Below the pieces are notes generated by a model. That model ran no database searches. It was given only the letters and a program-made list of their open reading frames with translations, and was not told the origin of the DNA. Shown here one piece after another: positions 1 to 51,948 of a stretch of DNA of 64,000 nucleotides. The translations under genes and the position numbers were made by a program. Source of the stretch: Mogibacterium sp. (GTDB taxonomy: Bacteria; Bacillota; Clostridia; Peptostreptococcales; Anaerovoracaceae); the NCBI GenBank assembly GCA_024403035.1, contig JAKSSP010000005.1:24176-88175 (forward strand), read 5' to 3'. The stretch's first letter is position 1; every line of letters begins with the position of its first letter.

Positions 1-1046
1 GTTGCTCCGTCACCGGCGATACTAATATCTATATATCTGTCCCTGAAAGCCCGGAGTGCTTTCAGGTCATAGCTGTCAGCGCAGACAGACTTTGCGAGTT
101 CTGCCGCATCTCTGAATACATAAGGCGCTATAGGTTCTGAATAGAAGTCGATATTAAGGCCTGTATTGCTGCTGTATTCATCAAGGTCATAAGCATAAAT
201 GAAGAGCGGCTTATCCGCAAGTGAAGATTCTATCACAAAGGATGAATAATCGCTTATGATGATATCCGCTGCCGCCAGCCAGTCGTTGGATGAAAAAGCT
301 TCATCAAAAATGACCGTATCAAACTCGCCTTCTGAACTTGTTGTCTGCCCCCTGTAGAGTGGGTGCAGTTTTACAACTATGTTGTATTTATCCGGACCAA
401 GCGCGTCTATCAGTTTCTGCGCTTCGACTGTCTTTCCTCTGCGGAAAGTCGGCGCGTAAAGTATAGTTTTTCTTCTGTTCTTCAGCTGCGGATATGTCCT
501 GAGTATCCTTTCCAGCTGTTCGTCATGCCTGCTGCCGGAAGCGACGCTCCTTATATAGTCGATTCGCGGCAGACCGTATTTTACGATCTTTTCCGGACTG
601 ACGCGGAATGCCTCACAGAAATGCTCTGCGGTTATGTCGCTCGCGGAGACAACATAATCATAGCCGCGATGCATCTTCATTAGCTTCGCGACTTTTTCGG
701 ATGATCCGTCTTCCTTGCCGACCGTCTGCCATCCAAACTTTTTTATGGCCCCAAGTGCGTGCCACATCTGTATGACCTTTGTGCCTTTACGGTGAGGGAT
801 CATGCTGGCCGGTATGCAGTAAGTATCCAGTACTACAACATCGGAGGCGAGTATTTCCGCCTCCTGTCTCATCACATGGCCTGCGTAGCCCAATGCTTTC
901 AGGGACTTCTCTTTAGTAAGCAGTTTGCTTAGTACTTTGACCTTGCAGCCCCGCTTAAGAAGTTCTGCCTCCAGCATCGCCACATCGAGCGTCTTGCTGT
1001 CGCTCTCCCGGCTTATTATGCTTATGCGTTTAACCCTGTTACTCAT
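1..1046 (-). CDS. CDP-glycerol glycerophosphotransferase family protein (TagB/TagF-like); 3' end lies off-window
   Basis: The minus strand is open from the window edge to the ATG at 1046-1044. My translation is MSNRVKRISIISRESDSKTLDVAMLEAELLKRGCKV...ILYAPTFRRGKT...ISDYSSFVIESS, which carries the LYAPT(F/W)R and DYSS motifs of the TagB/TagF family. It is absent from the ORF track only because no stop codon lies inside the window. Confidence 0.8.
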   Translation of the reverse strand, partial: MSNRVKRISIISRESDSKTLDVAMLEAELLKRGCKVKVLSKLLTKEKSLKALGYAGHVMRQEAEILASDVVVLDTYCIPASMIPHRKGTKVIQMWHALGAIKKFGWQTVGKEDGSSEKVAKLMKMHRGYDYVVSASDITAEHFCEAFRVSPEKIVKYGLPRIDYIRSVASGSRHDEQLERILRTYPQLKNRRKTILYAPTFRRGKTVEAQKLIDALGPDKYNIVVKLHPLYRGQTTSSEGEFDTVIFDEAFSSNDWLAAADIIISDYSSFVIESSLADKPLFIYAYDLDEYSSNTGLNIDFYSEPIAPYVFRDAAELAKSVCADSYDLKALRAFRDRYIDISIAGDGA

Positions 1047-1058
1047 TCCGGACCCCGG

Positions 1059-1616
1059 TCAGTTGCGGTTGTCGTAGAATTCGATCGCTTCGTCCAGATC
1101 GCCATCAAACAGCATCTTTCCTTTCTCAAGCACTATACCCCGCGTGCAGAAATCCCCTGCTGTCTTGAGGGCATGGGTAACGAAGAGCAGCGTCACGTTT
1201 GAGTCCGACATTATCTCGTTTACCTTTGCGGTACACTTTTTTCGGAACTCCTTGTCCCCTACGCTGAGAGCCTCATCTACGATCAGGATGTCAGGCTTCG
1301 AGTTTACACTGATGGCAAATCCGAGCCTTGCCTTCATGCCGCTTGAATAAGATCTGAGCGGCTGGTCTATGTATTCACCGATGTCTGCGAATTCGACGAT
1401 ACTCGGCAGTACTTCTTCTACCTCTTCATCTGTCATTCCCATGAGGCTGCACTTGAGTCTGATGTTTTCATAGCCGTTGGCTTCGACGTCGAATCCCGAG
1501 CTCAGTTCCAGCAAAGCGCTTATCTTACCGTCAACAAATATCTCTCCTTCAATCGGATAAGAAACGCCCGTTACCATCTTGAGAATGGTCGACTTTCCTG
1601 CGCCGTTGCGGCCTAT
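1059..1616 (-). pseudogene. 5'-truncated teichoic-acid export ATP-binding protein (TagH-like) fragment
   Basis: The 172-aa ORF aligns end to end with the C-terminal part of the intact copy at 11056-11790 (shared DQPLRSYSSGMKARLGFAISVN and PDILIVDEALSVGDK). The Walker A GRNGAGKST is still encoded in frame at 1578-1613. A TAA lies four codons upstream of it (at 1623-1625), and the first ~55 residues are missing. Confidence 0.8.
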
Positions 1617-35426: not shown

Positions 35427-36635
35427 TTAATCTCTTTCGATAGTAAACGGACTTTGAGTCTCCCTGCTGTAATTATCCTCAGATATGAGGTCTTCATCTA
35501 TGCCTCCCTTGTACGGATCGCCTGCGCCTGCATGTCCCAGCACATGCGGACCGTTTGCATCATATCTCGTAATTATCATTCTGTCTGTATAGATCTGCAG
35601 GACCGTTCCCGTAAGTGTCATGTCGGCAGCCGCATATTTGTCCGGATCGCCCTCATCGTATTGCGAAGCCGCACAGTTCATATAATATCCGGTGTAGCCC
35701 GCATTGAGATAAGTGAAGCGGAGTGTTTCCTCCGAGTACGTGTCCGTATCTATCTTGTATTCGTTGAATGACGGTATGAGAATGGTATCGCCGGCTGTCT
35801 TGAAGACACTGCTTCCTCCCATGTAGCAGTCCCATCCCTTTGAATGGTTGTGCCCATACAGATAGACTATGTCCAGCGACCCTGCTGCTTCATTCACCAC
35901 ATTGAAGATGAGTGATGAATACAGGTTATCTCCTGTCGAATGTTTCGAAGAAGTCCTTGCTGTAAAGTGCAGTGGTACATGTCCTGCTATGATGACCGGC
36001 CTTGTCTCCCCTTTCCGTATCAAATCATCAAGGTATTCTTTCATGGCCTCTGATGACTTCGTAACCTTTGCCAGGCAGCCGGACTTCTTCCCCTGCTTCC
36101 ACGGGAAATCCTCTTCAGCATTGAGTACGTAGATCAGGTAATCGCCTTCATCATGCAGACCGCTTTCTGTTATCTGTTCAGTTAGTCTGTCGTGATTGCC
36201 CTGCACAAAGATCATGTCATCATCGCTCATACCCGGGAACTCTTCCTTTGCAATCCCGCGTATCTCTTCAACGGATTCGTCCGGGCTCAGCTGATAATCA
36301 TGCAGAACTCTGTCATTCGTATAATCGCCGCAGATGACTATTCTGTCTATGGTCTTGCCGTCCGCCTTTACTGCCCTGATCAAAGCTCTCAATGTGTCTG
36401 CCGGTGCATCGAAGCCCGCTTCAGGCTGGTAGTCCGAGGCAAAGAAAACCGTCGCAAGAGGGCCTGCCTCTTCCTCTTCCTGCTGCTCTTCTGTTTGCTC
36501 TGTTACCGCTTCGGCAGTTTGCTCCTTCTGCCCTTCAGCTTTCGCTTTATTCGAACGGGCAATTCCAAAGGAAACCGCAGCTAACGCGATCAGCAGCGTG
36601 ATTATTAATATTATCCTGATGGTTTTCTTATTCAT
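35427..36635 (-). CDS. Membrane-anchored metallophosphoesterase
   Basis: An N-terminal transmembrane helix and an acidic linker, followed by the calcineurin-like motifs GDYTND, VQGNHD, GHVPLH and GHNH. Confidence 0.7.
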   Translation of the reverse strand: MNKKTIRIILIITLLIALAAVSFGIARSNKAKAEGQKEQTAEAVTEQTEEQQEEEEAGPLATVFFASDYQPEAGFDAPADTLRALIRAVKADGKTIDRIVICGDYTNDRVLHDYQLSPDESVEEIRGIAKEEFPGMSDDDMIFVQGNHDRLTEQITESGLHDEGDYLIYVLNAEEDFPWKQGKKSGCLAKVTKSSEAMKEYLDDLIRKGETRPVIIAGHVPLHFTARTSSKHSTGDNLYSSLIFNVVNEAAGSLDIVYLYGHNHSKGWDCYMGGSSVFKTAGDTILIPSFNEYKIDTDTYSEETLRFTYLNAGYTGYYMNCAASQYDEGDPDKYAAADMTLTGTVLQIYTDRMIITRYDANGPHVLGHAGAGDPYKGGIDEDLISEDNYSRETQSPFTIERD

Positions 36636-36647
36636 TGCTTTAAAGCA

Positions 36648-37442
36648 TTACAGCAGCCAGCCCTTTATGATTGCGTCTATCTTCTTCACATCGATCCCGC
36701 CATCATCCTGGTCATAAGTAATGATCAGATTGTCCCAAGGGGTGATTCCGATGTCTGCATATTCTCTCAGTTTACGGATGTTTTCTTCAAGGTACCTCAT
36801 GTCTGTTGTTCTTCCGAGATGCTCCCAATAGAATATCTTGCCGTCCCGCGGTCTTCTTATGGTAAAGTCCGGAACCCTGTTGACATCCGGATGTGGTATT
36901 CTCGCTTCATATCTGTATGGTATTCCGAAAAATTCCAATCTTGAAGCTATGATCAACTCTCCTTTGGATCTCATTCTATCCCCTAAAGAAGATGTTGATT
37001 TCAAACCATCTTCATAGAGACCCTCCGGCTTCCGATAATCCTCCATCCACTCCTCATTGCTCATATTACCATAATGAAGGCCTTCTTTGAGATCGGGATG
37101 CTTTTGGATATATTCTTTCATGACTGAGTCTTCATCTATCTCTTTATATTGCGCAAGTATTCCTTCCAGCAGTTGGAGGTCTTTATCGATCCTGCTGATT
37201 GCCCCATTCAGATATCGTTTCCGCACTAGTTTGTTTATTTGCTCTTTGTCTTTAGTAATTCCCTTTCGAAATGTCTTTTTTCGTCTTCCTCCTTTTGGGA
37301 TCTGCCATGTATAGTAACACTTTTCTTCATATGTTCTGATGTTCAGATAGCCATCTGGCAAATCACGCTGTTGCCTTTCAAGCAGATTCTTCTGCTTTTG
37401 CAGATCACTATAGATGTTCTGCAGTTGTTCTTTATAAACCAT
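36648..37442 (-). CDS. Orphan protein with a C-terminal PD-(D/E)xK (restriction-endonuclease-like) signature
   Basis: The C-terminal part reads SKGELIIASRLEFFGIPYRYEARI..VPDFTI..GKIFYWEHLG..NLIITY. This fits the E...PDF...E-x-(K/L)-G nuclease-core pattern seen in TnsA/Vsr-like and helicase-associated nuclease domains. The N-terminal half looks coiled-coil and basic. I prefer the ATG at 37442, behind AAGGAAGGAG. Confidence 0.5.
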   Translation of the reverse strand: MVYKEQLQNIYSDLQKQKNLLERQQRDLPDGYLNIRTYEEKCYYTWQIPKGGRRKKTFRKGITKDKEQINKLVRKRYLNGAISRIDKDLQLLEGILAQYKEIDEDSVMKEYIQKHPDLKEGLHYGNMSNEEWMEDYRKPEGLYEDGLKSTSSLGDRMRSKGELIIASRLEFFGIPYRYEARIPHPDVNRVPDFTIRRPRDGKIFYWEHLGRTTDMRYLEENIRKLREYADIGITPWDNLIITYDQDDGGIDVKKIDAIIKGWLL

Positions 37443-37472
37443 CTTCGCTGCTCCTTCCTTTTCTGTGAATAC

Positions 37473-37570
37473 TGCGCATTTTATACTGCCTTTGTGTTCC
37501 AAATGCGCAATTGTTGGATAAACGTTCATTTCTTGCGCATGTATATCTTTTTCATTGGGTGATATGCGCA
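37473..37570. repeat. Phased TGCGCA box array, block 1 (4 boxes)
   Basis: TGCGCA occurs at 37473, 37504, 37534 and 37565, with spacings of 31, 30 and 31 bp. Confidence 0.9.
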
Positions 37571-37678
37571 GTTTTAGTTGAAATTTCAGACCGTGAACCG
37601 TCCTTTGTTGGTTTCAGCTCCGGATAGCTCACTATACCTGTACGAATGGAGATTCCTGTGATTTGCATATGAAAAAAC

Positions 37679-37775
37679 TGCGCATTTCTTCATGGTAAAT
37701 GTGAAGATTTGCGCAATTTTTTCTGGCATTCCTCAGCTTTGCGCATATGTTTTTCATCAATTCTTCATATGCGCA
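37679..37775. repeat. Phased TGCGCA box array, block 2 (4 boxes)
   Basis: TGCGCA occurs at 37679, 37710, 37740 and 37770, with spacings of 31, 30 and 30 bp. The block starts 114 bp after the last box of block 1. Confidence 0.9.
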
Positions 37776-38040
37776 TTTTTTAGTCATTGAGTATAGGGGG
37801 TTGCTGTTTTTATCTTGCTTTGTGGGTTGCCGCTCGCCTCTCCTGGCTCGCGGGGCCTGCCAGGCCAATCGGCCTCGCCCTATAGCTGTCCTTGCGGGTG
37901 TGGCAGTGCCCGCAGGCCAGCGCGGGCCGCTTGGGGCAGGCCGGCAAGTCAGGAAACTGCAGTCTCAGCTTCTATGGAGACATTATGGCGCTGAATCCAC
38001 AGAAAATGTTACTGAATCCACGGGAAAATGGGGAATTAGA

Positions 38041-38080
38041 AAAAAGCTTCGGCTTTTCAGCTTTTCAGTCGAAGCTTTTT
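38041..38080. terminator. Bidirectional hairpin terminator downstream of the lipoprotein gene
   Basis: aaaaagcttcg (38041-38051) pairs with cgaagcttttt (38070-38080); the A and T runs lie at the outer ends of the two arms. Confidence 0.75.
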
Positions 38081-38111
38081 CTCTCTTTCATATGCCTTTA
38101 TCAGGCAGTCT

Positions 38112-38508
38112 TTATTCTGCATCGAAGACTGCGATGTATTCGGCATCCGTTTCATTGACCTCTATGGTTATGGTCTCTTCTGTAGAGTAGTCTTCGCCGT
38201 CCTTTGTCCATTTGATGAACTTCCAGCCTTCATCTGCCTTTGCGCCAACTGTGTATGTCTTTACTTCAGGCTCTCCGAGGTATGTTGACTGGGCAGGGGA
38301 ATTCATCGTTGAATTCCGGCTCTTCGCCTTCCTCTGCATAAGCGATCTGTCCCATACCTTCAGTGTTGATGAGTGCTGTGAACTGCGCGGTCTGCTCTTC
38401 TGCGCTTCCCGGATCAGCGCTGTCTTCACTGCCGGACCCTCCACCAGCACAGGCGGCAAGCGCTAACACCAGAACCGCCGTCAGTAATAATGCGAATACT
38501 TTTTTCAT
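38112..38508 (-). pseudogene. Small lipoprotein gene with a frameshift in a C4 run
   Basis: Lipobox LALAAC after MKKVFALLLTAVLV. Track ORFs 38266-38508 and 38112-38459 are consecutive pieces. The frame changes at GAATTCCCCTGCCC (the G4 run at 38296-38299 on the + strand). Confidence 0.7.
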
Positions 38509-38527: not shown

Positions 38528-41041
38528 CTACACCAGTGTCAGCTGTTCGCTGCCGTCGGCTCCTACGTTAGGGTCCTTTGGCGCGTCAGCGGTAGGTTTC
38601 TGGGCTGAGTCCTCATCGACTACCTTCGCGACGGAGACGATGCGGTTGCCCTTCTCCACCTTCATGATCTTGACGCCCTGTGTGGTGCGGCCAAGCGTGC
38701 TGACCTCATCGGCGCGGATACGGATGATGACGCCGTTGGAGTTGATCACCATGACTTCGTCATCTTCGCTCACCAGGGTCGCTCCCACAAGCAGTCCGGT
38801 CTTGCTGAACTTGGTCTTGTCGTATGTCGCGACTCCCTTGCCGCCTCTGGCTTGCAGTCTGTACTCATCGAGCGGCGTACGCTTTCCGAAGCCGTTCTCT
38901 GTGATGACCAGCATCTTGCGGGTCTGATCGATGTCAAGTTCCATGGAAACGACTTCATCGCCCTTCTCCAGGAGTATCGCTCTGACTCCGCCGGCATTAC
39001 GGCCCATAGGTCTGACGTCGTCTTCGCTGAAGGCGATCGCCTTGCCCTGCTTGGTGACTACCAGTACGTTCTCCTTGCCGCTTGCAAGCGCTACACTTAT
39101 AAGCTTGTCGCCTTCCTTGAGCGTGATGGCTATGAGTCCGGCCTTGCGGTTGGTGTCGAACTCTGTCATAGGCGTCTTCTTGATGGTTCCCTGCTTGGTG
39201 ACCATCACTAGGCACTCGTTTGGCTTGAACTCTCTGACAGGGATCATGGCCGTTACGCGCTCTGTGCTGTTGAGGTTGAGGAAGTTGATGACAGGCGTGC
39301 CCTTGGCTGTCCTGCTTGCTTCCGGTATCTCGTAAGCCTTGATCTTGTAGACGCGTCCCATGTCGGTGAAGAACATCAGGTAGTCGTGCGTGCTGGTGAT
39401 AATGAGGTCGCGTACAAAGTCGCTCTCTCTCGTCGTCAGCCCGACTATACCCTTGCCTCCGCGGCGCTGCGCCTTGTATGTGTCGGCCGGTACTCTCTTG
39501 ACGTATCCGAGGTGCGTCAGTGTGATTGCAACGTCCTCTTCATCGATCAGAGCCTCTTCATCAAGCTCACCTTCGTCTGCAACGATCTTGGTGCGACGCG
39601 GGTCTCCCCACTTGTCCTTGATCTCCAGAAGCTCATCCTTGATGACTCCCATCAGCTTGTGTTCATCTGCCAGCAGGCTCTTGTAGTACGCGATCTTCTT
39701 GAGGAGCTCGTTGTACTCGTTCTCGATCTTCTCACGCTCGAGTCCCTGCAGCTTGGCAAGCCTCATGTCGAGTATGGCCTGCGCCTGGATCTCGGAGAGG
39801 CCGAATCTTATCATCAGCTTTTCCTTGGCGTCGTTGTATGCTGAGCGAATGGTCGCGATGACTTCATCGATGTTGTCGAGCGCTATGATCAAGCCCTCTA
39901 AAATGTGGGCTCTTGCCTCGGCCTTCGCGAGGTCGAAGCGCGTCCTTCTTGTGACTACTATCTTCTGATGCTTCAGGTACTCCTCGAGTATCTGCTTCAG
40001 GTTGAGGATCTTAGGCTCGCCGTCCACCAATGCCAGCATTATCATGCTGAACGATGTCTGGAGCGCTGTGTGCTTGTAGAGTCTGTTGAGGATGACGTTA
40101 GGGTTGGTATCCTTCTTCAGCTCTATGACTATGCGCGTGCCCTCACGGTTGGATTCGTCGCGGATCGCCGAGATGCCCTCTACCTTCTTTTCCTTTACAA
40201 GGTCTGCCATCGACTCGATGAGCCTTGCCTTGTTGACCTGGAACGGGATCTCGCTGACGATGATGCGCATGCGTCCGCGCTTGTCCTCTTCTATCTCGCA
40301 GACGGATCTGACGTTGACCTTGCCCTGGCCTGTCATGTAGGCCTCGCGGGCTGCGTGCTTGCCGAGGATTATGGCTCCTGTCGGGAAGTCCGGTCCCTTG
40401 ATGATGCGGGCCAGGTCCGGGATCGATGTGTCAGGCTCGTCTATCAGCTTGACGCAGGCGTCGATGGTCTCGCCCAGGTTGTGGGGCGGGATCGACGTGG
40501 CCATGCCGACCGCGATACCGTTGGATCCGTTGATAAGCAGGTTAGGTACTCTTGATGGGAGTACTTCAGGCTCCTGCTCTTCGCCGTCGTAGTTGTCCAT
40601 GAAATCGACGGTGTCTTTTTCGATGTCACGTACCATCTGCAGCGAGAACGGTGACATCCTGGCTTCTGTGTATCTGGAAGCCGCGGCCCCGTCGCCGTCG
40701 ACCGAACCGAAGTTTCCGTGTCCGTCAACCAGCGGATAGCGCGTCGAGAAGTCCTGAGCCATCTTGACCATCGCGTCGTAGATGGAGGAGTCTCCGTGCG
40801 GGTGGTATTTACCCATTACCTCACCGACGATACGCGCCGACTTCTTATGCGGTTTGTCCGGCGTGATGCCGAGGGAGTGCATGCCGTACAGGATACGCCT
40901 GTGCACCGGCTTTAATCCGTCGCGCACGTCCGGAAGAGCACGTCCTACGATTACGCTCATCGCGTAGTCGATGTACGAGTTTTTCATCTCATCGTATATC
41001 TCGTGCTCGATTATATTGCTGTTGTCCAACAAATTTGCCAT
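38528..41041 (-). CDS. gyrA: DNA gyrase subunit A
   Basis: 837 aa with [23 protein letters not shown] and the active-site region [11 protein letters not shown], plus C-terminal beta-pinwheel repeats. Confidence 0.97.
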
Positions 41042-41081: not shown

Positions 41082-43034
<1,953 letters not shown>

Positions 43035-43274: not shown

Positions 43275-44003
43275 TTATCCGAAAAAGCGTTTCATCCCAT
43301 CGGAAATGTCCTTAAAATCTATTACGATAGCCCCTTCTGAGATACCCAGAGGTATCTGTTCTTCAAAGCCATAAGTAACCGGAGGCACCCCTTTTTCAAA
43401 CTGATAAACAGTCACTTCCTCTCCCTTTATGTCGATCAGCCAGTATTCGCGTACTCCCTTTTGCCAGTACTTATTCAGTTTTAGTGTTCTGTCATATTTT
43501 TCAGTTGATGGAGACAGCACCTCGGCCACATAGTCCGGAGCGCCTACTATAGTCTCTTCATCTTTAGTGTATTTTTCTTTGTCGCATACGATTAGCACAT
43601 CCGGGATAAAACCGTTTCTATCGTCGTTTTCATCCGGCTGTACTCCTGCCGGGCCAAGCACAAGACAAGGGCCTCCTTTTTCCTTTATTGCTATGCTTAG
43701 CTGTATTACAAGCTGCGACGCAATATACTGATGTCTCTTGGTAGGATAATTCCTGTCATAAAGCACTCCGTCTATCAGTTCCATCCATGCGCCATCCGGA
43801 AGGTTCTTCCAGTCCTCTATTTTGGAATGCAGCTCCGGAAAAAGGATGCACTCTATGCTCTGAAGCGTATTATATCTCGGCTTGGAGGTGGCCCCGCCAA
43901 AGAACTTCTGGACCGTCCCCAGCGGCACTCCGGAGAGTTTTGATACCATCTCGTTGGTATAGCCCAGCTCTTCCTTTCTTTTCTTCAGATCTTCTATCTT
44001 CAT
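43275..44003 (-). CDS. XRE-type HTH fused to a Uma2-family (PD-(D/E)xK) endonuclease domain
   Basis: N-terminal GYTNEMVSKLSGVPLGTVQKFFGG (HTH). C-terminal APDYVAEVLSPSTEKYDRTLKLNKYWQKGVREYWLID is the characteristic Uma2/DUF820 motif. I prefer the ATG at 44003, behind AAAGGAGG. Confidence 0.75.
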   Translation of the reverse strand: MKIEDLKKRKEELGYTNEMVSKLSGVPLGTVQKFFGGATSKPRYNTLQSIECILFPELHSKIEDWKNLPDGAWMELIDGVLYDRNYPTKRHQYIASQLVIQLSIAIKEKGGPCLVLGPAGVQPDENDDRNGFIPDVLIVCDKEKYTKDEETIVGAPDYVAEVLSPSTEKYDRTLKLNKYWQKGVREYWLIDIKGEEVTVYQFEKGVPPVTYGFEEQIPLGISEGAIVIDFKDISDGMKRFFG

Positions 44004-44149
44004 TTTCAGCCTCCTTTTCGCATTCAGACGCATATCCGGGCTTGCTTTCATTTATATTTTAAGCCATTTTAAAGCCGTTGTCAATCCATTTACGAGCCGT
44101 TTTAAAAAATGGTCTTTTTTGTGCATCAAAACTGTGCAATAATAGGCGC

Positions 44150-45361
44150 ATGAAGATAAACAGCATCATTTTGGAAAACTTCAGAAACTATAAACGCCTC
44201 GAGCTCGATTTTGACGACAGCCGCAATATTATCGTGGGCGAGAACGCCCAGGGCAAGACCAATCTCATCGAGGCGATCTACCTGACCGCTTTCGCCAAGT
44301 CATTCAGGACAAACAATACGGCCGACCTCATCAGCTTCGGCGAAGATCAGGGCCGCGTCAGTACATACCTCACGTCCGAGGACATCGACAAGAACATCAA
44401 CATAGTTCTGAGATCTGACGGCAAGAAGATGATCAAGAAGGACGGCAAGGTGATACGCAAGACCACAGAACTCCTCAACAATGTGGTGGTAATTATCTTT
44501 TCGCCGGATGATCTTCGCATCATCAAGGACAGCCCGGACAGACGCCGCAACTTCATCAACCGCGAGCTCTCGCAGATGAGACCGATGTACTATGACGCTT
44601 TAAAGCGCTACAACGAAGCTATCAGAGAGAAGAACGCTCTGCTCAAGGGCTACTTCAATGTAAAGAAAAAGACCTTCACGCGCGCTGACAACCTGAGCCT
44701 CAACGATCTGCAAAGCGGCGCGGCTGCAGCGGACGAGCGCAGTCCGTACGACAACAGCCGCCGGTTCAATGAAGAGATGATGGACATCTACGACCGGCAG
44801 CTGGCTGACTCAGGCTATGAGATCATAAGATTCCGCAAGGAATTCGTAGAGATGCTGAGCAGCGAAGCCGGCGAGATAATGCATAAGATATCCGGCGGCA
44901 GGGAAGATCTTAAGATAGAATACAAGACTACATGCGACTTCGTGACGGGGCCGGAAGGGCGCGAAATACTCTTCAGCCAGATCTACCACAACAGAGACCG
45001 CGACATATATAACGGTTACGCAAGCATTGGTCCGCACCGTGATGACATAGAGTTTTATATCAACGGAAAGGATGCCAGAAAGTATGGCTCGCAGGGTCAG
45101 CAAAGAACGATAGCTCTTTCGCTTAAGCTGGCGGAGATAAGGATAGCCAGACAGATGCTTGACGAACCTCCGGTCCTGCTTCTGGACGACGTGCTCTCGG
45201 AACTCGACCTCGACAGGCAGAAGTTCCTGGTGAGCGAGATAGATGACGTGCAGCTTTTCATCACATCAGCCGAACTGAACGACGAGGTCATAAGGGATCT
45301 TCGCGGCGGCACTCTGTTCCGTATTGAGGAGGGCTCGGTGACGCGCGTGGATAAATATTAG
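44150..45361 (+). CDS. recF: DNA replication and repair protein RecF
   Basis: MKINSIILENFRNYKRLELDF, Walker A GENAQGKTN, the signature GSQGQQRT and Walker B LLLDDVLSELD. Start taken at the ATG at 44150. Confidence 0.9.
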   Translation: MKINSIILENFRNYKRLELDFDDSRNIIVGENAQGKTNLIEAIYLTAFAKSFRTNNTADLISFGEDQGRVSTYLTSEDIDKNINIVLRSDGKKMIKKDGKVIRKTTELLNNVVVIIFSPDDLRIIKDSPDRRRNFINRELSQMRPMYYDALKRYNEAIREKNALLKGYFNVKKKTFTRADNLSLNDLQSGAAAADERSPYDNSRRFNEEMMDIYDRQLADSGYEIIRFRKEFVEMLSSEAGEIMHKISGGREDLKIEYKTTCDFVTGPEGREILFSQIYHNRDRDIYNGYASIGPHRDDIEFYINGKDARKYGSQGQQRTIALSLKLAEIRIARQMLDEPPVLLLDDVLSELDLDRQKFLVSEIDDVQLFITSAELNDEVIRDLRGGTLFRIEEGSVTRVDKY

Positions 45362-49057: not shown

Positions 49058-49241
49058 CTGTGGAATTTTTCTCATGTATGTCTAAATTAAATACAAAATG
49101 TCCAAAAATGGGGTTATACACAATATGTAGTGTAGCCTTATGGTTGTTCACAGTTTTATCAACAATATGTGGAAAACTTATTTTTTGAACAGCCTGGAAT
49201 ACCTGTTTTTAATGCTATTTTACCCTTTGCATATGTGGAAA
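49058..49241. other. oriC part 1: DnaA-box cluster between rpmH and dnaA
   Basis: 9-mers with one or two mismatches to TTATCCACA: TGTGGAATT 49058 (2 mismatches), TTATACACA 49113, TTGTTCACA 49143 (2 mismatches), TTATCAACA 49155, TGTGGAAAA 49167 and TGTGGAAAA 49233. Confidence 0.75.
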
Positions 49242-49282
49242 ACTTTGAGTAAAATTGGTTTACAAACGTATGGAGAGTAACC

Positions 49283-50626
49283 GTGGATAAGAACAAGATA
49301 TGGGGGACGACCCTCAATTTTCTTAAAGATAATAATACGACACTGAGTTACAATACCTGGCTGGCTCCTCTAAAGATACATCACATAGAGGAAGAGGCAG
49401 GTATTGTTTATCTTGCGTGGCCTGATCAGCCGCGTCTTATTACACATATCAACGATCACTATCTTACTCAGATCGAAAATGCCATCAACAGCAGCACGGA
49501 TAAACCGTTCCGCGTGGTGATAAAAAGCGATAAGGATTATGAAATAAGCAAGATCGATACAACAAAGATGAAGAATACTCTGAATCAAGAGAAACTCTTC
49601 AATCCGCGTTTTAATTTTGAGAATTTCGTAGTCGGTAATTCAAATAAGTATGCTCATGCTGTTTCGGTCGCAGTAGCTGAATCCCCTGGAGATATCTATA
49701 ATCCTTTGTTTATATATGGTGGATCCGGACTCGGCAAAACGCACCTGATGCAGGCTATCGGAGTACAGATAATCCGCAATAATCCTGAAACCAAGGTACT
49801 TTACGTGTCCGCGGAAATGTTCACAAACGAACTTATCACCGCGATCAACGATAATAAGACCAGAACTTTCAGAAATAAATACCGCAAGCTTGATGTACTT
49901 CTTATAGACGATATCCAGTTCCTTGAAGGAAAAGAGGCGACGCAGGAAGAATTCTTCCATACTTTTGAAGCTCTTTATCAGAACAATAAGCAGATAGTAA
50001 TTACAAGTGACTGTCCGCCGGTAAGTCTTAAAGGTCTTGATGAAAGACTGCGTACAAGATTCAGCTGGAACATGATAGCGGATATCCAGCCTCCTGATTA
50101 TGAGACAAGAGTAGCTATTTTAAGAAATCTTGCTGAAAAATCGGATATTGATATGACCCCTGAAGTAAGTGATGTACTTAATCTTATTTCAGATCAGGTA
50201 AAGGATAATATACGAGAACTTGAAGGAGCATATAACAGGGTAGTCGGTCTTTCACAGCTTCTGAATGAACCAATAAATGTGGATAACGCCAGGAGTATAC
50301 TGAAAGATATCATTAAAGATAATGAGCAGGCTGTTGCTCCTGAGAGAATAAGATCTATAGTAGCTAATCACTATAAAATAAAGATAGCGGATATGGATTC
50401 TCCAAAGAGAAATGCTGAAATAACTCTGCCAAGACAGGTTGCGATGTATCTTTGCAGAACTGAAACTGATCTTTCTCTTCCTAAGATAGGAAAGCTGTTT
50501 GGAGACAGACATTATTCAACTGTAATACATGCCATAGAAAAAATAGAAGATCAGCTTAAGTATGATGAGATACTCTATGAAAATATAGAAACAATTAAGG
50601 CAAAACTGCAGTCCAGAAAGATATAA
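49283..50626 (+). CDS. dnaA: Chromosomal replication initiator protein DnaA
   Basis: GTG start behind GGAGAG. AAA+ motifs GGSGLGKTHL and LLIDDIQF, plus the domain IV helix-turn-helix. The usual GRDHTTV signature reads DRHYSTV here. Confidence 0.95.
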   Translation: MDKNKIWGTTLNFLKDNNTTLSYNTWLAPLKIHHIEEEAGIVYLAWPDQPRLITHINDHYLTQIENAINSSTDKPFRVVIKSDKDYEISKIDTTKMKNTLNQEKLFNPRFNFENFVVGNSNKYAHAVSVAVAESPGDIYNPLFIYGGSGLGKTHLMQAIGVQIIRNNPETKVLYVSAEMFTNELITAINDNKTRTFRNKYRKLDVLLIDDIQFLEGKEATQEEFFHTFEALYQNNKQIVITSDCPPVSLKGLDERLRTRFSWNMIADIQPPDYETRVAILRNLAEKSDIDMTPEVSDVLNLISDQVKDNIRELEGAYNRVVGLSQLLNEPINVDNARSILKDIIKDNEQAVAPERIRSIVANHYKIKIADMDSPKRNAEITLPRQVAMYLCRTETDLSLPKIGKLFGDRHYSTVIHAIEKIEDQLKYDEILYENIETIKAKLQSRKI

Positions 50627-50752: not shown

Positions 50753-50810
50753 TTATCCACATTATCAACAACACTTACTATTAATACTAATATCTAATAT
50801 ATAAATATAA
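50753..50810. other. oriC part 2: tandem DnaA boxes, trinucleotide-periodic tract and AT-rich unwinding region
   Basis: A perfect TTATCCACA (50753-50761) is followed directly by TTATCAACA (50762-50770). Next comes cttactattaatactaata (minus strand TAT TAG TAT TAA TAG TAA), then a nearly pure A/T tract up to about 50810. Confidence 0.7.
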
Positions 50811-50844: not shown

Positions 50845-51948
50845 ATGAAAATATATTGCAACAGAACAGAATTAAATAAAGCTTTGAATAATGTTTCTCA
50901 TTCTGTTCCGGTAAGAACTACATCAAATATATTGGAAGGAATTCTTATCAATGCAGAAGATAGTAAAATGAAACTTACTTCTACAGATACAAACATGACA
51001 ACTGAAACAGTCATAAATGTAAAGGCAGACGGTATCTGTGAATTTGTAGTATCTGCCAAGCTGTTCAGCGCTATCATCTCAAAGCTTCCTGAAGAAGATA
51101 TGATGATAGATTATGATAATGAAAAATTAAAAATAAACATAAAGAGCGGAGGATCGAATTCTGAAATCATATGTTTCAGAGGAGATGATTATCCGAAGAT
51201 CAGACTTGATGAGGGTGAAAAAGTATTCTATCTGGATAAAGAAGATGTAAAGAAGCTTATTAAAAAGACTGCTTTCAGTGCTTCAACTGATGAATTCAAC
51301 AGGATCATCACAGGAGTTCTTCTTGAGATCAAAGATGGAAAAATGAAGATGGTAGGAGTTGATCCTTACAGGATAGCTACTTATCAGATAGATGTTGATA
51401 ATAAAGAAAATGTAAATGTTATCATTCCGGCAAAATTGATCATTGAAGTATCAAAATTCATTGATGATGATGGTGATTCAAAGATGAGTTTTGAGATCAT
51501 AGATAATAAAGTTGTGATGAAGTTTGATAATAACAAAGTAATCATCAATACTTATTCAGGAAAATTCATTGATTATGAAAGGATCCTCAATAAAGAAGGA
51601 AACATCAATGTAAGAGTTAAAAAAGATGATCTTTTGAAGAGTACTGAAAGAGCATCACTTCTGGCATCAGTTCAGAATAATAACCTTATAAGATTCAATA
51701 TTGGAAAAAATATGATATATATCACTTCTCTGAATGAAGAGGGAAATATTGAAGAAAAGGTAGAAGTCATAAATGATGGAGAAGAATTGAATATAGGAAT
51801 CAATTCAAGATATTTAAAGGATGCTCTCAGTGTCATTGAAGATGAAGAAATAAACATCAACTTCAAAGACAGTGTAAGCCCGGCCATCATAAAGCCATTA
51901 AAAGGCGATAAATACACATATTTGATCCTTCCAATCAGAATGAATTAA
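50845..51948 (+). CDS. dnaN: DNA polymerase III beta sliding clamp
   Basis: 367 aa with the three-domain clamp pattern (LNKALNNVSHSVPVRTTSNILEGILI...PAIIKP...YLILPIRMN). It lies directly after dnaA. Confidence 0.95.
   Translation: MKIYCNRTELNKALNNVSHSVPVRTTSNILEGILINAEDSKMKLTSTDTNMTTETVINVKADGICEFVVSAKLFSAIISKLPEEDMMIDYDNEKLKINIKSGGSNSEIICFRGDDYPKIRLDEGEKVFYLDKEDVKKLIKKTAFSASTDEFNRIITGVLLEIKDGKMKMVGVDPYRIATYQIDVDNKENVNVIIPAKLIIEVSKFIDDDGDSKMSFEIIDNKVVMKFDNNKVIINTYSGKFIDYERILNKEGNINVRVKKDDLLKSTERASLLASVQNNNLIRFNIGKNMIYITSLNEEGNIEEKVEVINDGEELNIGINSRYLKDALSVIEDEEININFKDSVSPAIIKPLKGDKYTYLILPIRMN

Follow-up and report, generated by a model that had tools for sequence, protein, structure and literature searches.

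Inverted TGCGCA pairs upstream of a PD-(D/E)xK-like gene in Mogibacterium sp.: a predicted private operator in an unnamed protein family

We analysed a 64-kb stretch of DNA from Mogibacterium sp. (hereafter the window) in which eight TGCGCA hexamers, or boxes, lie upstream of a gene for a 264-aa nuclease-like protein. The boxes had been noticed in an earlier account made from the letters alone (the sequence-only reading). We found that they form four inverted pairs, that the hexamers and their spacing are under selection, and that comparable pairs with member-specific sequences stand upstream of other genes of the same protein family. The eight boxes are probably the adjacent protein's own predicted sites, with at least an autoregulatory role. 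The protein family, the geometry of its half-sites, the family-wide co-variation of site and protein, and a structured, unclassified element that we call R1 are new.

Results

An exact scan of the window places the TGCGCA starts at 37473, 37504, 37534 and 37565 (proximal block) and at 37679, 37710, 37740 and 37770 (distal block). The box spacings are 31/30/31 bp, then 114 bp, then 31/30/30 bp, and both positions and spacings are exactly those of the sequence-only reading. The array is also non-random, as had been supposed. The other 63.7 kb of the window hold 17 copies, and a Poisson model with this background rate gives a probability of about 4e-14 that a 303-bp segment has at least eight. 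No further TGCGCA pair 15-45 bp apart occurs elsewhere in the window, and no other non-simple hexamer forms a comparable cluster in it, a GCTGCT coding repeat excepted. The hexamer is not depleted overall, with 25 copies in the window against 20 expected. Sequence common to the units amounts to 6-9 bp only; we rejected a type III toxin-antitoxin repeat array because the units are not near-identical.

The boxes had been described as direct repeats in which seven of the eight read TGCGCA-W-W-T on the plus strand. That pattern holds for six of them, and the flanks alternate: TGCGCAT ... ATGCGCA is followed in 7 of the 8 arms, around inner spacers of 23, 23, 23 and 22 bp. Because of this alternation, the eight boxes are four inverted pairs and not direct repeats. 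Two pairs are distal (37679-37775) and two proximal (37473-37570) relative to the start of the gene at 36648-37442(-), and the arm centres within a pair lie 30-31 bp, or three helical turns, apart. Do all eight boxes face the same side of the helix, as first proposed? Within the blocks the three-turn phasing is robust, but a common face between the blocks is not established, since the phase coherence of the eight boxes is 0.84-0.94 at 10.2-10.3 bp per turn and falls to 0.25 at 10.5 bp per turn.

The phased array is retained in orthologous loci whose proteins are 84%, 83% and 66% identical to that of the window (loci of relatives are given by number). L003 and L004 (84%), which share the gyrA-to-metallophosphoesterase position of the locus, carry eight boxes spaced 30/30/31, then 116, then 31/30/31 bp. 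L002 (83%) has six exact boxes and two with one mismatch, in register. The eight boxes of L005 (66%) show the inverted alternation of the window and are spaced 31/20/30, then 126, then 31/20/31 bp. Measured between box starts, the two blocks are thus 116 bp apart in L003 and 126 bp apart in L005. Only the between-pair distance shrinks in L005, from 30 to 20 bp or by one helical turn. Thus the 30-31 bp pair is the unit, and the distances between pairs change by whole helical turns.

Aligned with the window, L003 is identical in 48/48 box columns and in 71% of the other array columns (Fisher p 3e-7), and L002 in 46/48 box columns and 49% of the others (Fisher p 5e-11). The hexamers and their spacing are therefore under selection, whereas the DNA between the boxes is not. 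This agrees with the earlier view that spacing, rather than a long repeat unit, is what is kept. A CRISPR-like array was rejected because the inter-box DNA is collinear between orthologues at the identity just given for L003, which means that there is no spacer turnover.

We fetched 84 loci of relatives, 77 of which gave usable upstream regions, and searched these for recurrent pairs, meaning an exact 7-mer and its reverse complement 24-40 bp apart, found at least twice. Recurrent inverted pairs occur in 40 of the 77 family upstream regions, compared with 2 of 143 flanking controls and 0 of 1540 shuffles. Across the family the arms are most often 30-31 bp apart, around a constant inner spacer of 21-23 bp. 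In the usual layout a distal pair and a proximal pair are separated by 110-270 bp; in some members of the Lachnospiraceae type, 4-7 units are arranged in tandem with a period of 50-53 bp. The half-sites share an inner ATG(T/C)(A/G), ATGTA-like core, and their outer bases vary by member. The arms include ATGCGCA (the window's clade), ATGTACA, ATGTATA, ATGTAGA, ATGTAGG, ATGTAAC, ATGCATA, GTTGAGAAA and others. By sequence comparison, then, the half-sites of the family are homologous but member-specific. The palindromic form of TGCGCA is incidental, because most of the homologous half-sites in relatives are not palindromes (ATGTAGA, ATGTAAC, GTTGAGAAA).

Paralogues encoded in one genome have different boxes, as in L015 (TGTACA) versus L023 (TGTAGG) and likewise L021 versus L042. 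No neighbouring gene is conserved across the family loci, so the family gene is the only constant partner of the sites. A scan of JGI metagenome contigs and IMG/VR for TGCGCA-N24/25-TGCGCA-N24/25-TGCGCA gave many matches; among those listed, none is near a family gene and the densest arrays are either spaced in multiples of 15 bp or regular 30-31 bp tandem repeats. We take these dense arrays as tandem, probably coding, repeats.

Several distant members (L076 at -488..-198, L077 at -461..-128, L054, L049 and L032) have long upstream tandem arrays. Among them are 52-bp units present at least six times and seven inverted TGTGTCA/TGACACA pairs, and some of these loci carry unrelated short tandem repeats with 11-, 14- and 62-bp periods. 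In addition, contigs L301, L302, L028, L031, L034, L060 and others begin only 130-850 bp upstream of the family gene, inside or just past the box/hairpin region, which suggests that sequence repeated or variable between strains broke the assemblies there.

What is the protein that these sites accompany? An alignment-based AlphaFold model of the 264-aa protein (pLDDT 84.7) gives an N-terminus with a helix (2-26), three strands (32-61) that include a basic loop (PKGGRRKK), and a second helix (66-98). This region resembles a prefoldin-like coiled coil, with a weak Foldseek likeness to prefoldin beta (E 0.3-1). The C-terminal alpha/beta domain is, on the model, a PD-(D/E)xK nuclease fold; its top Foldseek matches are the R2 RLE domain, DrdV, AF1548, Bax1 and Hjc (E 0.01-0.2, probability up to 0.98). 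The earlier description of the gene as nuclease-like is thus upheld. E162, D192, E207 and H208 are invariant in the family, and the canonical Lys position reads E-H-L. The invariant E162, D192 and E207 suggest an active nuclease.

The protein matched no family in Pfam (E <= 0.1), NCBIfam, PHROGs or PDB sequences. Its sole database match is between its last 125 residues and the C-terminus of the PADLOC candidate PDC-S68. A look at the sequence had raised the idea that the beta-beta-beta-alpha region is an AP2 or lambda-Int arm-binding domain; a Foldseek search with the N-terminal model gave no AP2/Int matches and we dropped it. An N-terminal profile search returned 6 fragments only and revealed no new domain architecture.

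At E <= 1e-30 this large family comprises 927 representatives (50% identity clusters), nearly all of about 264 aa and unnamed. The genomes in which we found it are Anaerovoracaceae/Mogibacterium, Lachnospiraceae and Oscillospiraceae metagenome-assembled genomes, mostly from rumen and gut, and several have more than one paralogue. Full-length members were not found in PLSDB plasmids, phage genomes or IMG/VR. Variation along the protein is greatest in the beta-hairpin at residues 32-48, which adjoins the invariant basic loop and fits a specificity element. Because the arms of paralogues differ, because the sites have no other constant neighbour and because this hairpin is variable, we infer that each family protein reads the pairs upstream of its own gene.

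R1 (Table 1) lies beyond the distal block. It aligns with segments in L001-L005, L010 and L015, and in the opposite orientation with L023 and L027. Compensatory changes affect 19 of its 39 base pairs among 11 sequences, and 95.6% of cells are paired, compared with 85% in shuffles and 28-39% in slid controls, in an alignment that was fitted to the structure model and so favours structure. The counts of G-U (3 cells) and A-C (2 cells) favour neither strand, and R1 may act as RNA or as DNA. We found 11 R1 matches in 569 kb, every one of them upstream of a family gene; a single copy is in the window. R1 is common to members with different boxes: 10 loci combine R1 with member-specific boxes, and the distance from R1 to the first box pair is 40-90 bp across loci. 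An Rfam 15 scan of the whole window found nothing at gathering scores, and one of 37400-38130 at E <= 10 found chance-level matches only; R1 core patterns had zero matches in IMG/VR. In L002, two inverted R1 copies, 315-449(-) and 1274-1408(+), flank an inserted nucleotidyltransferase (NTP_transf_2) gene. L005 has R1-type copies at 2169-2222 and 2438-2572, the extra copy being truncated to the 5' stem strand and the 3' hairpin.

Other family loci have hairpins of other types. A second conserved hairpin, unrelated to R1, was seen in L009 (about -480..-330) and also in L013, L017, L026, L040 and L051. It is about 150 nt long, with a dG down to -86 kcal/mol in L017, has DnaA-box-like arm sequences including TTATCCACA, and sits upstream of the box pairs, at the position of R1. 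A third type, GCACGCACGAGAG ... CTCTCGTGCGTGC, occurs in L006 (-130..-85), L010 (-422..-336), L023 (-603..-516) and L027 (-749..-679), as well as in L042 and L043 (-515..-454), and sometimes adjoins R1. Only about one quarter of the family loci have a strong hairpin upstream. We therefore rejected the idea that such a hairpin is universal upstream of family genes; it is a frequent companion of the module and not a universal part of it.

The neighbours of family genes are housekeeping genes in conserved synteny (gyrA, metallophosphoesterase, galE, glycine-cleavage genes and similar), and no coupling protein, type IV secretion system (T4SS) or integrase was found near the family loci. The features of the window are collected in Table 1.

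Table 1. Features of the array region and its chromosomal surroundings, in window coordinates
Feature	Position	Strand	Remarks
Secreted metallophosphoesterase gene	35427..36635	-	starts 12 bp past the nuclease gene stop codon; followed by galE
264-aa protein gene	36648..37442	-	presumed box binder
Proximal pair 2	37473..37509		nearest the gene start; TGCGCAT-N23-ATGCGCA; boxes 37473 and 37504; columns conserved in L001, L003, L002
Proximal pair 1	37534..37570		TGCGCAT-N23-ATGCGCA; boxes 37534 and 37565; outer box TGAGCA in L002, in register
Spacer between proximal and distal blocks	37571..37678		108 bp; 41% GC; holds partly conserved segment GTATAGTGAGCTATCC
Distal pair 2	37679..37715		TGCGCAT-N23-(T)TGCGCA; boxes 37679 and 37710; extended arms GAAAAAAYTGCGCAWWTCTTCA
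Distal pair 1	37740..37775		TGCGCAT-N22-ATGCGCA; boxes 37740 and 37770
Element R1	37821..37955	-	135 nt; 72% GC; four helices, 39 pairs; ends 46 bp upstream of the distal block
Bidirectional terminator-like hairpin	38040..38083		AAAAAAGCTTCG...CGAAGCTTTTT; closes the upstream unit; read from sequence
Lipoprotein gene, apparently frameshifted	38112-38508	-	two overlapping open reading frames (ORFs)
gyrA	38528-41041	-	
gyrB	41082-43007	-	
dnaA	49283-50626	+	DnaA boxes 49114-49290 and 50753-50770; about 11-13 kb from the array
dnaN	50845-51948	+	

Downstream of the nuclease gene, the 12-bp junction with the metallophosphoesterase gene is present in 7 loci, and the two genes are possibly co-transcribed. 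On the other side, the terminator-like hairpin is the likely upstream limit of the module, and in L003 R1 begins directly after the gyrA terminator. Between terminator and R1 in the window is a direct repeat, CTGAATCCAC, at 37991-38000 and 38012-38021 (21 bp apart), which is absent from L003; its complement, GTGGATTCAG, bears a loose likeness to a DnaA box. The slot between gyrA and R1 is variable, being empty in L003 and holding the nucleotidyltransferase gene in L002, and may be an insertion hotspot. Of the two ORFs that fill it in the window, the 80-aa one has a lipoprotein-like signal and the 115-aa one an InlB B-repeat/Flg_new_2 domain.

With dnaA and dnaN 12 kb from the array, the position of dnaA and its boxes confirms the earlier estimate of the distance to oriC. 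The layout of oriC is unusual in that gyrB/gyrA are on the strand opposite dnaA/dnaN. Between the two gene pairs are genes for a RecF/SMC-like ATPase (44078-45361) and a Uma2-family putative endonuclease (43275-44051), and the 50-52 kb segment that includes dnaN has 31-32% GC, compared with 47% for the whole window.

Discussion

The sequence-only reading was essentially right in its description of the array and wrong about its orientation, and its specific functional guesses are unsupported. Its broader view, that the array binds a protein, is the best reading. What might the paired sites do? Autoregulation by looping is the simplest function. A dimer of the 264-aa protein would span each pair, with one DNA-reading module per arm on the same helix face, and the distal and proximal complexes could meet across the spacer to form a loop or a higher-order complex. 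The minimal outcome would be autoregulation of the nuclease gene, and probably also of the metallophosphoesterase gene that follows it. The complex may also bring the nuclease domain beside R1. One pair of the proximal block lies 36-67 bp upstream of the ATG, the expected position for an operator.

Dual-operator looping systems and the C protein operators of restriction-modification systems offer a partial parallel. As in those systems, the sites lie upstream of the regulator's own gene, distal and proximal operators are 110-270 bp apart, and the site co-varies with the protein. Unlike them, the half-sites are three helical turns apart rather than adjacent, and there are up to 7 units. The presumed binder also has an apparently intact nuclease domain and no methyltransferase or restriction partner.

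Several results weigh against a private operator. The strict exact-arm test failed in 37 of the 77 loci. L077, L076 and L083 have 5-7 tandem units over more than 300 bp, a larger array than simple autorepression would call for. Nor would a plain repressor require an active nuclease, and the long arrays together with the apparently intact active site suggest a role beyond repression. The N-terminal fold gave no significant Foldseek match to a known DNA-binding domain. Finally, a consensus scan found no convincing sigma-70 promoter in the region. The sequence-only reading had placed one at TGCGCA-N18-TATAAA, but this fails the scan, and neither L003 nor L002 conserves its TATAAA. With no promoter placed, an overlap of operator and promoter is unsupported.

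If the protein is more than a repressor, the region could be a site-specific DNA-processing site (a transfer origin, nickase or recombination site) at which the boxes dock a PD-(D/E)xK enzyme that nicks or cuts in or near R1, in the manner of the MOBC relaxase TraX at the oriT2 of pAD1. We consider this unlikely, though it is the strongest competitor of the private operator. The putative catalytic residues are invariant, the inverted R1 copies of L002 enclose an inserted gene, and L005 has a truncated extra copy. The combination of a PD-(D/E)xK protein, a covarying 135-nt element and member-specific short repeats also follows the logic of the oriT of pAD1 and pAM373. Against it, the housekeeping neighbours keep their synteny and include no coupling protein, T4SS or integrase, full-length members are absent from the plasmid, phage and viral collections searched, a strong hairpin accompanies only about a quarter of the loci, and R1 occurs in either orientation (L023, L027).

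How far does the resemblance to pAD1 and pAM373 go? The closest known system is the oriT2 of these Enterococcus plasmids with its MOBC relaxase, TraX/Orf8; the likeness in logic is striking, but membership fails. Some of the features compared here were reportedly described by Francia and Clewell in 2002. As in oriT2, the gene downstream of the site encodes a small protein (~260 aa) of the restriction-endonuclease-related PD-(D/E)xK type, the binding site is tens of bp from a structured part, and short element-specific repeats would set specificity. The plasmids have an inverted repeat of ~140 bp that is homologous between them, together with plasmid-specific short repeats (PMC12857230; pAM373 sequence), and the repeats to which TraX reportedly binds are 70-120 bp away from nic (PMC12857230).

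Membership of the 264-aa protein in MOBC/Replic_Relax was rejected. It has no Pfam match at E <= 0.1, PF13814 included, and comparing the family profile with the pAM373 relaxase in hhalign gave a probability of 0.1; the pAM373 relaxase itself matches PF13814 (Replic_Relax). The two proteins are therefore not homologous. TraX has an N-terminal winged helix and an N-terminal/central nuclease, whereas the 264-aa protein has a prefoldin-like N-terminus and a C-terminal nuclease. TraX repeats are direct with 11-bp periodicity, and the boxes of the window are inverted pairs 30 bp apart. Unlike the plasmid sites, the family loci have a chromosomal housekeeping context without conjugation or integration genes, and many lack the hairpin. 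In its fullest form, the proposal would make R1, the private pairs and the solo PD-(D/E)xK protein a new chromosomal, sequence-programmable DNA-processing site, with the nuclease docked to nick or cut at R1. We regard this version as speculative and slightly less likely still.

Could the boxes instead belong to a different, unlinked host regulator that controls the nuclease gene? That the adjacent protein is the binder is something we infer, and since only about 64 kb of the genome are in the window, a regulon could exist elsewhere. However, the boxes differ between paralogues of the same genome and track the family protein, so that a separate regulator would be needed for each paralogue, and the 64 kb contain no further TGCGCA pair 15-45 bp apart. 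This explanation is improbable.

We give very little credence to a centromere or an iteron replication origin, in which two iteron blocks would nucleate a partition complex or melt the spacer. The sequence-only reading had likened the layout to plasmid or phage centromeres and iteron operators, and the two blocks do recall the SaPI ori and the parC site of plasmid R1. At parC, bound by ParR, two phased blocks of short repeats likewise surround a core and overlap the promoter region of the binder's operon. Some relatives have arrays of 5-7 units, and the hairpin of L009 and L013 has DnaA-box-like sequences. However, parC has 11-bp direct iterons in place of inverted pairs, its binder is a small RHH protein, and it is plasmid-borne with a partition NTPase. 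An ORF and Pfam survey of the neighbourhood found no adjacent ParA/ParM/TubZ or Rep/helicase gene. The spacer, at 41% GC, is not AT-rich, 37400-38130 contains no DnaA box even when one mismatch is allowed, and the protein has no Rep-like domain. The chromosomal position of the locus, 11-13 kb from a normal oriC, is moreover conserved and in no mobile context, and the family was not found on plasmids or phages.

Least credible of all is a methylation-dependent epigenetic switch, another of the earlier suggestions: TGCGCA is palindromic and a known target of the restriction enzyme FspI, but the half-sites of relatives are mostly non-palindromic, paralogues' boxes differ, the hexamer is not depleted in the window, and a crude scan of the window's ORFs found no DNA methyltransferase motif pairs. 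In phage P1 pac, 4 + 3 TGATCA hexamers flank the cleavage point and cleavage is under Dam methylation control. The window resembles pac in having two clusters of a palindromic hexamer around a central region as the possible target of a site-specific DNA-cutting protein. It differs in having no terminase, phage context or methylase, and in the non-palindromic boxes of its relatives.

A private operator thus remains the reading that we favour, and it gives an initial way into a large, unnamed family of proteins that gut and rumen Clostridia encode as several paralogues per genome. A candidate recognition sequence stands upstream of each member's own gene, which makes the prediction directly testable, and the family is a natural series of proteins and half-sites for working out a recognition code. 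If autoregulation is the only function, the operator geometry, with half-sites three helical turns apart, would be unusual and the biology otherwise ordinary. If the nuclease domain acts on R1, these loci would be a new site-specific DNA-processing system at core chromosomal positions, here beside gyrA near oriC. Such a module would be functionally convergent with MOBC relaxases and their oriT, and might serve, for example, in chromosomal mobilisation, cassette insertion beside R1, or local initiation of replication or recombination. In that case the family would offer a natural collection of dimeric nucleases whose half-sites are easy to re-target.

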